Below are positions 28,144 to 28,624 of a stretch of 64,000 bases of DNA, one piece after another. Under the pieces are notes generated by a model that was not told the origin of the DNA, made no database searches, and was given only the letters and a program-made list of their open reading frames with translations. The DNA is from a phage. The position numbers and the translations under genes were made by a program. The first letter of the stretch is position 1. Every line of letters begins with the position of its first letter. The DNA lies in the sequence record PQ826431.1, one strand, 5' to 3'.

Positions 28144-28563
28144 TCTAGCCTCCTAAACGCGTCTCTGACGCACTTTTTATATATAAGATGATAAATCACC
28201 TTACCTAGTAAGTAAACTTGCTCTACGAGCCTCTTATGAAGCTTGTGTTATAGGCTATACTATTGCTACCTGTTTAAGCAAGGTTTTTGCACACAGAAAA
28301 TAATTTTTAATAAAACTCTTGACTTTTGTGTTCGAAGTATGCTACCCTGGAAATCTATTAACGAGCGCAGCGAGTTAAGGTTTTAGGTTGTTGATGTAGT
28401 ACTCTGTACTCAAGTACTGTATTCCGTACTAGATTAATAATTATTAAATATTAATAATAAATAATTATTAGATCTAACAAACAGGTACAGTGTATCAGAA
28501 CTGGTACGTACAGATCAACTTCTATCAATTAAAAATAAAATAATAAATTATTATAAATAATAC

Positions 28564-28592
28564 TTGATCTATAGATCAGTATGAAGTACAGT
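28564..28592 (+). promoter_or_regulatory. sigma70-like promoter candidate (TTGATC-N17-TACAGT) for rightward small genes
   Basis: Hexamers read from sequence upstream of the 28625 gene. Confidence 0.35.
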
Positions 28593-28624
28593 ACGGAACA
28601 TCTTAACAAGAATGGAGGTGTGCA

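Follow-up and report, generated by a model that had tools for sequence, protein, structure and literature searches.

At the primary origin of bacteriophage T7 and at oriF and oriG of T4, a promoter is followed by an A/T-rich unwinding element, and the transcript primes replication. Iteron-type origins are exemplified by lambda ori and by the plasmids P1, R6K, and pSC101, and clusters of methylation sites are found at control loci such as oriC, with its GATC sites, and pac of phage P1, with its hexanucleotide repeats. Large lytic coliphages such as rV5 (PMC3606486) contain predicted divergent early promoter regions, which are located at a strand switch with small early open reading frames (ORFs) of unknown function on both sides, use sigma-70 hexamers with A/T-rich upstream tracts, and show an inflection in GC skew that follows from gene orientation. 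Here we describe a noncoding gap that shares these features with the rV5-type regions, located at positions 28144 to 28624 (481 bp) of a 64,000-nucleotide stretch of the phage sequence record PQ826431.1, referred to as the window. From comparisons with related sequences, we consider it probable that the gap controls early transcription from divergent promoters and that its GTAC repeats are a clade-specific addition, probably derived by slippage, which is conspicuous through the genome-wide avoidance of GTAC.

The window represents a Phapecoctavirus genome (Stephanstirmvirinae), that is, a myophage of Escherichia coli (E. coli) with a genome of about 150 kb. The 3-kb region that surrounds the gap was 99.5% identical to Escherichia phage Mt1B1_P17 and 95% to 99% identical to about 150 other Phapecoctavirus records. 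Equivalent gaps were found by synteny in phiWec190 (about 80% identity) and in the increasingly distant phi92, Klebsiella phage KP2025, and Citrobacter phage Tr1, and extra copies of the locus were taken from metagenome contigs, with L021 among the cross-lineage loci. Comparisons within the close clade were based on 10 near-identical relatives, and comparisons across lineages on 6 lineages, including the window. Unlike the rV5-type regions, the gap has 2 tandem rightward promoters about 245 bp apart, a long untranslated spacer, a promoter cassette that occurs in 3 copies, and a cluster of GTAC sites against a genomic background depleted of this tetranucleotide. The region is of a common type, with some details that have not been described before. 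Phages of this genus and related groups have been isolated widely and serve for the therapy or biocontrol of E. coli, yet their control of early transcription and replication is unannotated and unstudied; the GenBank annotations inside the gap consist only of ribosome-binding sites or a bare "repeat_region". The features described below provide testable coordinates for 3 early promoters and propose a candidate operator and a promoter-proximal hairpin cassette.

A preliminary description of the locus, made from the sequence alone, had called the gap a divergent control region, and this was supported by the identification of 3 putative sigma-70-type promoters with proper spacing, A/T-rich tracts, and ribosome-binding sites, the positions of which were kept in 5 further lineages. 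The first rightward promoter, here called P1 (28297 to 28348, plus strand), is predicted to comprise an A/T-rich upstream tract (28297 to 28316), the -35 hexamer TTGACT (28319 to 28324), an 18-nt spacer, and the extended -10 element TGcTACCCT (28340 to 28348). The pattern TTGAC(A/T)-N17/18-TGnTACCCT was identified in phiWec190, phi92, KP2025, Tr1, and the metagenome loci, and P1 was invariant among the close relatives, save for single changes in EP57 and Schickermooser. The sequence TATGCT was rejected as the -10 element of P1, as this would give a spacer of 13 nt.

The second rightward promoter, P2 (28527 to 28592, plus strand), is predicted to consist of a 36-nt pure-A/T tract (28527 to 28562), the -35 hexamer TTGATC (28564 to 28569), a 17-nt spacer, and the -10 hexamer TACAGT (28587 to 28592). 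It is followed on the same strand, at 28614 to 28627, by the ribosome-binding site GGAGG (28614 to 28618) and the start codon at 28625 of the first rightward ORF. In all lineages, an A/T tract was located directly upstream of a P2-type promoter with the pattern TTGA(C/T)(T/C)-N17-TA.A.T, and no longer A/T run was present at the locus in any of them; the tract appears to be UP-element-like and conserved as such. Both P1 and P2 were recognizable in all 6 lineages, with a spacing of 17 to 18 nt and diverged spacer sequences.

In the leftward direction, a consensus scan identified a putative promoter, PL (28188 to 28216, minus strand), with the -35 hexamer TTTACT (28216 to 28211), a 17-nt spacer, and the -10 hexamer TATCAT (28193 to 28188). 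The PL block GGTGATTTATCATCTT was invariant across the 10 close relatives and kept in phiWec190, phi92, and Tr1, and PL was only partly conserved across lineages. Upstream of the first leftward ORF (27820 to 28143, minus strand, with its start codon at 28143), the minus-strand RNA could form the stem-loop GCGUC-AGA-GACGC (28159 to 28171), separated by 4 nt from the downstream ribosome-binding site AGGAGG (28149 to 28154). The corresponding GCGTC-TCT-GACGC sequence had previously been placed at 28149 to 28161, and its actual position is 10 bases to the right. A stem-loop with a different stem (GCUC/GAGC) was found at the same place in phi92 and Tr1, and the stem-loop in phiWec190 was kept through a G.U pair, with pairing on the minus-strand RNA only. 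Because the stems differ by lineage and the G.U pair is confined to the minus strand, we interpret the element as a hairpin in the 5' untranslated region of the leftward mRNA and not as a plus-strand terminator. It was also noted that the EP57 record (OR544956.1, L027) lacks 28 nt spanning the P2 -10 hexamer and the ribosome-binding site as well as about 20 nt near PL, which represents either a deletion or an assembly error.

A candidate operator emerged from an analysis of k-mer enrichment in the interval from the hairpin downstream of P1 (described below) to the first rightward start codon in the 6 lineages. The hexamers GATCTA/TAGATC were observed 14 times compared with 0.82 expected, and in every lineage, and the heptamer AGATCTA was observed 9 times compared with 0.3 expected; these k-mers all derive from a palindrome of 8 bp, TAGATCTA. 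The window contains TAGATCTA at 28469 to 28476, and a GATCTA.TAGATC form is located at 28566 to 28577, within TGATCTATAGATCA (28565 to 28578), which is a perfect palindrome across the P2 -35 hexamer and spacer. The sequence TAGATC(TA) was located directly past the P2 -35 hexamer in phi92, phiWec190, and KP2025, the latter with one mismatch. Furthermore, TAGATCTA followed by ACA(A/G)AC was common to the window, phi92, Tr1, and L021, and in the last 3 of these the copy of TAGATCTA followed by ACAGAC was located 20 to 35 nt past the hairpin. Exact copies of TAGATCTA were found 7 times in 150 kb, 4 of which were located within 400 nt downstream of 3 P1-type modules (P of about 1e-7), as were 11 of 88 genome-wide occurrences of its hexamers (P of about 1e-10).

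An operator would be expected to leave such a distribution among related genomes, which suggests this role for TAGATCTA. The preliminary description had also proposed a multi-operator regulatory hub, and the idea survives with a different motif, as the palindrome repeated in all lineages is TAGATCTA and not GTAC. A search for the LexA operator CTGT-N8-ACAG in the gap gave one site with one mismatch, compared with 0.5 expected, and thus no enrichment.

According to the proposed mechanism, host RNA polymerase would start leftward transcription at PL, near 28181 on the minus strand, to yield an mRNA that opens with the small stem-loop before the ribosome-binding site. Rightward transcription would start at the tandem promoters P1 and P2, with predicted starts near 28354 to 28357 and at about 28599, respectively, on the plus strand. 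At P1, with its extended -10 element, the transcript or the displaced non-template strand would begin with the GAGCGMAGCGAG hairpin, and at P2 the 36-nt A/T tract may act as an UP element for the synthesis of an mRNA with a short leader that encodes the first rightward gene. The copies of TAGATCTA located past the P1 hairpin, and those that span or adjoin the P2 -35 hexamer and spacer, would serve as operators for a dimeric regulator that shuts or tunes the early promoters. The GTACT repeats and GTAC doublets most likely arose by slippage or small duplications in the spacer that separates the P1 leader from P2, which is under weak constraint, and were retained in a shallow clade.

The GTAC repeats were arranged in 3 groups, as had been described, with 9 sites within 196 bp (28399 to 28594) that start at 28399, 28406, 28414, 28426, 28485, 28504, 28508, 28586, and 28591. 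The left group (28399 to 28430, plus strand) is composed of direct GTACT repeats with a spacing of 7, 8, and 12 nt; the central group (28485 to 28511) contains GGTACAGT and GGTACGTACAG; and the right pair, GTACAGTAC (28586 to 28594), overlaps the -10 hexamer of P2 and the adjacent downstream bases. Most close relatives contained 10 GTAC sites, with a left group of 5 GTACT units spaced by 7, 8, 5, and 7 nt, and one of the left-group sites has been lost from the window by a C to T change (GTAT). Other losses were observed in anhysbys (one site in the central group, C to T) and phAPEC8 (one site, T to C), and 13 nt of the left group were missing in dw-ec.

Nine GTAC sites per 200 bp compare with 0.18 expected (Poisson P of about 5e-13), and none of 2,000 dinucleotide-preserving shuffles of the gap reached 9 sites (mean 2.4, maximum 8). 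When neighboring sites were collapsed to 4 independent events, the P value was about 1.5e-5, and it rose to about 0.005 when corrected for 320 windows. In the 150 kb of Mt1B1_P17, the gap was the segment of highest GTAC density, with 10 sites compared with 3 in the runner-up.

Despite this density, the array is confined to one shallow clade, the core Phapecoctavirus. The equivalent gaps contained no GTAC sites in phiWec190, 2 in phi92, 3 in KP2025, and one each in Tr1 and L021; the GTACT array had no counterpart in the other lineages in the cross-lineage alignment, in which the window interval was about 25 to 35 nt longer. The repeat pattern, the absence of which from close relatives had been singled out as a check, was kept within the close clade and absent from the sister lineages. 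The initial reading of the repeats as GTAC-core iterons was not upheld, since the cluster was missing from phiWec190, phi92, KP2025, Tr1, and L021 and the repeats are spaced by 5 to 8 nt and not arranged as phased units of 17 to 22 bp, and differ in copy number between near-identical phages. Furthermore, the GTAC columns changed as often as the rest of the gap (3 of 40 versus 21 of 440 positions, P = 0.44), with no sign of extra constraint. The eye-catching repeats are, in our interpretation, a clade-specific feature and not a conserved control element; the persistence of the array says little either way because the clade is shallow.

The spacer that contains the repeats is indel-prone, as shown by variation among near-identical phages in the GTAC copies, in the lengths of the A/T blocks, and in a short variable repeat, (TTAAGGTTT)n (28374 to 28392, plus strand), which follows directly after the P1 hairpin. 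The TTAAGGTTT unit was present in 1 to 3 copies among close relatives, with extra copies in anhysbys and UP17. The inverted pair about 160 bp apart that had been reported for the gap does exist, as the 9-bp sequences TTCCGTACT and AGTACGGAA (28422 to 28430 and 28590 to 28598), but about 0.4 such pairs are expected in 481 bp and the pair shrinks to 6 to 8 bp in close relatives. It was rejected as a feature.

Several observations weigh against the interpretation of the gap as an early-promoter region with a slippage-derived GTAC array. The clustering of GTAC is unlikely by chance even if counted as 4 events and is located in a genome that otherwise removes GTAC, so that the cluster may have a function. 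Tandem Repeats Finder placed the GTACT array below threshold, so the suggested slippage origin is based on manual reading and copy-number differences. The second GATC of the P2 palindrome (28574 to 28577) was changed in 4 of the 10 close relatives, to GATT in UP17 and Schickermooser, AATC in phAPEC8, and GATG in EP57, with invariant flanks, which weakens a strict operator reading at this palindrome. No regulator gene was identified by Pfam and PHROG searches of the 8 flanking ORFs. The -35 hexamer of PL is weak, which makes this putative promoter the least certain of the three, and a literature search retrieved no relevant paper with mapped transcription starts for this phage group.

The conspicuousness of the cluster is related to the composition of the genome. 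GTAC was the most depleted 4-mer in the window, with 55 sites observed compared with about 195 to 225 expected, corresponding to an observed-to-expected ratio of 0.28. The tetranucleotides CCGG, GGCC, CGCG, and CTAG were also depleted, but not GATC. Across the subfamily, the ratio for GTAC decreased from 0.81 in Tr1, 0.77 in KP2025, and 0.72 in phi92 to 0.52 in phiWec190 and 0.31 in Mt1B1_P17, and the depletion was accompanied by little excess of GTAT/ATAC. Between the window and Mt1B1_P17, 8 of 45 GTAC sites differed, compared with a background of 5%, which indicates a faster turnover. The genome has probably been purged of GTAC by restriction-modification pressure, and it is because of this purging elsewhere that the cluster in the gap stands out. 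It was also noted that CTAG was absent from L010 (14.7 kb; 22 sites expected) and from phiWec190 (L003, 5.2 kb; 11 sites expected), which represents a strong lineage-specific avoidance of this palindrome, unlike that in the window.

An unusual pattern was observed in the BI-EHEC record (OL505078.1; L026, L031), in which 18 of 34 GTAC sites differed from positions 597 to 49854 of the window, compared with a background of 4.6% (P of about 1e-15), and 8 of the 9 sites in the gap were apparently lost. GTAC was the sole tetranucleotide with such an excess, every change was a C to T substitution on either of the 2 strands, and roughly half of those in coding sequence were non-synonymous. BI-EHEC was assembled from nanopore reads only (Guppy 4.0.11, Flye, Medaka; PMC8686590), and the variant was unique among 65 records. 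A generic nanopore error at GTAC was ruled out, as dw-ec, a sister assembly from the same laboratory, showed no such effect. The pattern is probably a base-calling artifact at host-modified GTAC sites and possibly the result of real counter-selection. The record was rejected as a natural GTAC-less knock-out that would prove the sites dispensable, given the nanopore-only assembly, the uniqueness of the variant, and the share of about half that non-synonymous changes make up in coding sequence. Taken together, the graded depletion and the BI-EHEC discrepancies point to a restriction-modification pressure directed at GTAC, which is relevant to host range and to checking the quality of phage genomes assembled from nanopore reads.

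It is unlikely, in our judgment, that the GTAC repeats themselves serve as clade-specific operators for a looping regulator that controls P2, or as a methylatable patch that reports parental versus newly replicated DNA. Such functions would account for the strong non-random clustering in a GTAC-depleted genome and for the arrangement in 3 groups, one of which (GTAC sites 8 and 9) overlaps the P2 -10 hexamer, and the C to T differences in BI-EHEC, absent from dw-ec, suggest that GTAC cytosines are modifiable in some hosts. As in the methylation-site clusters at oriC and P1 pac, a short palindromic and methylatable tetranucleotide is present in many copies, here over about 200 bp in groups separated by A/T-rich DNA. 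However, the motif is GTAC and not GATC, the locus is not at the packaging end, no DNA methyltransferase was found among the phage ORFs in a crude motif screen, and no candidate regulator was found. Moreover, the cluster is absent from sister lineages that keep the remaining architecture, a spacing of 5 to 8 nt cannot put successive sites on one face of the helix, the copy number varies with no extra sequence constraint, and the pattern in BI-EHEC, which is unique to that record, may be due to real mutation.

The second conserved component of the locus is a hairpin located 10 to 20 nt downstream of P1, which in the window extends from 28358 to 28378 on the plus strand (TTAAC-GA-GC-GCA-GC-GA-GTTAA), with the core GAGCGMAGCGAG at 28363 to 28374. 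The sequence occurs once in the window. In all lineages, the core GAGCG(A/C)AGCGAG was invariant and surrounded by short complementary flanks, and the top of the hairpin was GCGCAGC or GCGAAGC, so that the sole variable base was the free N of the GNA loop. By its sequence, the top GC-G(A/C)A-GC belongs to the GCGNAGC class of mini-hairpins, defined as GC-GNA-GC or GC-GNNA-GC with a free N (PMC13037366). The same top is found in the mini-hairpins GCGNAGC/GCGNNAGC at G4 ori(c), RSF1010 ssiA, and the promoters of the N4 virion RNA polymerase (PMC13037366); in contrast to these, the hairpin in the gap belongs to a phage with double-stranded DNA, immediately follows a putative sigma-70 promoter, and could equally act as RNA.

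Two further copies of the promoter-hairpin module were identified in Mt1B1_P17 (MT496970.1), at 22960 to 23060 and 135113 to 135215, both on the plus strand, outside the window, and with the 8-nt form GCGATAGC. The 3 copies constitute a cassette composed of a TTGACT-N17/18-TG(c/g)TACCCT promoter, a GAGCG(N1-2)AGCGAG hairpin, a TAGAT-rich stretch, and an exact TAGATCTA within 400 nt. We regard it as distinctly unlikely that this cassette is an undescribed initiation module, of which the copy in the gap carries a modifiable GTAC patch; the module could be an origin or loading site primed by transcription, or else a site for antitermination similar to nut. If this were so, the patch would couple the activity of an early promoter or origin to the restriction-modification state of the DNA, that is, to parental versus newly replicated DNA or to host-specific methylation. 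It was noted that the copy at 135113 opposes the surrounding minus-strand genes within a 360-bp gap and may drive an antisense or small RNA.

Two metagenome loci with a promoter-hairpin pattern, L013 and L017, were not relied on because L013 showed no protein similarity to the phage of the window and about one chance match to the pattern is expected in the collection. In L013 (JAAUYG010044177.1), the pattern at 5900 to 6560 has a GTAC/GTAC stem and is followed by GTAC heptads and tandem GTAC-GNA-GTAC hairpins; this contig, which looks unrelated, contained no GATC in 12.9 kb (31 expected) and may be remotely related to the cassette family or match the pattern by chance. In L017 (Ga0192244_10025), a 73-kb contig, 2 convergent TACCCT...GAGCGAAGCGA copies at 990 to 1190 form a long inverted repeat.

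The position of the hairpin at the extreme 5' end of the predicted P1 transcript, with the GNA loop on the RNA-like strand as a strand-specific motif, raises the question of a function at the RNA level. The hairpin and the following GUAC- and AU-rich stretch could act as a stabilizer, as a processing or attenuation site, or as an antitermination site similar to nut or boxB-boxA, all of which we consider very unlikely. The module is promoter-proximal in all 3 copies, and the 276-nt RNA from P1 to the ATG codon folds better than shuffled sequences (z = -2.8). In the rrn boxB-boxA order, a hairpin is followed by a linear element, and the P1 hairpin is likewise followed by a conserved linear element, GAUCUAACAGAC, although this is a resemblance only. 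Against this, the minimum-free-energy RNA fold of the P1 leader does not use the proposed hairpin, the structure of which is reproduced by the predicted DNA fold, and the conservation of TAGATCTA in the form of a perfect palindrome suggests recognition at the DNA level. Covariation in the stem was modest, with one compensatory C-G to A-U pair and a score of 0.232 compared with 0.124 in shuffles (5/500), and clear only if the doubtful loci L013 and L017 were included. The GUAC part is clade-specific, and no known RNA families or tRNAs were found inside the gap; a 5-kb Rfam scan gave no match there, and in a scan of 28100 to 28700 the best Rfam scores were 12.8 and 10.8 bits (E > 2).

The A/T-rich and perfect palindromes in the preliminary description were present in the gap. 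AT block 1 (28431 to 28476) includes a 38-nt pure-A/T run (28433 to 28470) and the perfect palindrome TAATAATTATTA (28435 to 28446), and ends in TAGATCTA. The block forms an inverted repeat with arms of about 15 to 16 nt, AGAT(C)TAATAATTATT ... AATAATTATTAGATCT (28431 to 28475), which is perfect in UP17. AT block 1 is located 85 nt, and the A/T block at P2 about 180 nt, downstream of P1, and their pure-A/T runs of 38 and 36 nt are the 2 longest in the 150 kb of Mt1B1_P17. The nieznany record (MN850598.1) was found to start and stop inside the gap, probably because of an assembly break in the A/T-rich repeats.

A promoter upstream of the longest pure-A/T runs in the genome is reminiscent of the transcription-activated origins of T7 and T4. 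P1 transcription could open the duplex for replication in both directions, co-oriented with the diverging genes, with the GNA mini-hairpin extruded on the displaced strand or marking a loading or priming site, and with the A/T tracts as the unwinding element. The rV5-like phages carry a T7-type Pol A and a gp4-like primase-helicase, and the group has a T7-type replisome (PMC3606486); the GCGNAGC-class hairpin top has been linked to the primase and origin sites of G4 and RSF1010 ssiA in a review (PMC13037366). The indel tolerance of the spacer is also compatible with an unwinding element, and the cumulative GC skew has a local minimum here. A replication origin, which the preliminary description had named as the other possibility, was nonetheless not supported, and we hold an origin of this type to be improbable. 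The GC skew was rejected as independent evidence, as it tracks gene orientation at all 4 strand switches, with extremes at about 20, 58, 97, and 132 kb, and likewise follows gene orientation in rV5 (PMC3606486). Unlike the T7 and T4 origins, the gap has promoters for host RNA polymerase, an A/T tract that abuts a second promoter and is equally explained as an UP element, conserved as such, and a promoter-hairpin module that occurs 3 times per genome.

Searches for other origin signatures also gave little. In the window gap, one DnaA box with one mismatch was found, compared with 0.74 expected, with no cluster, and IHF sites and GATC were not above chance; GATC was nominally enriched in phiWec190 only (P = 0.016). 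No initiator gene was recognizable among the 8 flanking ORFs. As in iteron-type origins, repeats are located next to A/T-rich DNA in a noncoding region, where it could serve for unwinding, but they have periods of 5 to 8 nt and a core of 4 to 5 nt, not phased repeats of 17 to 22 bp, are accompanied by neither an adjacent initiator gene nor DnaA boxes, and are absent from the sister lineages and thus not conserved in related replicons. Direct repeats of iteron length were not identified between 28100 and 28700, the single exception being a low-complexity A/T pair of 39 nt.

Short palindromic sites that cluster in A/T-rich surroundings, and a database record (nieznany) that begins and ends in the gap, might also be expected at a packaging site or physical genome terminus, as at P1 pac, a possibility that we consider to be almost certainly wrong. 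Genomes of this family have short direct terminal repeats (PMC6563267, PMC12695924), and other records from the study that produced nieznany start at arbitrary places. A terminus in the gap was rejected, as the Schickermooser record was found to begin and end with a 329-bp exact terminal repeat, at a distance of 54 kb from the gap; this repeat maps to positions 1 to 322 of Mt1B1_P17, which are not part of the window and are about 97 kb away from the gap.

With regard to the flanking genes, small leftward ORFs are located on one side of the divergent promoter region and a rightward ORF (28625 to 28810, plus strand) on the other. The latter encodes a protein of 61 amino acids assigned to a PHROG of unknown function, and is followed by 2 more small ORFs and a tRNA array (29603 to 31645). 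A Pfam search of the 8 flanking ORFs gave no match, and their PHROGs were all of unknown function. In the tRNA array, an Rfam tRNA model matched 30304 to 30388 with 39 bits; this stretch was not called by ARAGORN and is annotated as a pseudo-tRNA in Mt1B1_P17. A tRNA-Sec-like match at 29989 to 30075 (37.4 bits) was below the gathering score, and both matches may represent degenerate or unusual tRNA genes. A match to the RyhB model just past the last tRNA (31732 to 31786; 29.4 bits, E = 0.018, gathering score 55) is probably due to chance.

Finally, more consensus-like rightward promoters were noted between the first small ORFs, at 28807 to 28835 (TTGACT-17-TAAACT with TG) and 28929 to 28958 (TTGACA-18-AAAAAT), and further consensus-like promoters were found throughout the tRNA region of Mt1B1_P17. 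In the same genome, the region from 1.7 to 12.3 kb, beside the genome terminus and outside the window, contained about 19 near-identical promoters with the sequence TTGACA-N16-TAAGAT/TAAACT followed by GTATCAC(A/G)TAGG, each of which precedes one small ORF.

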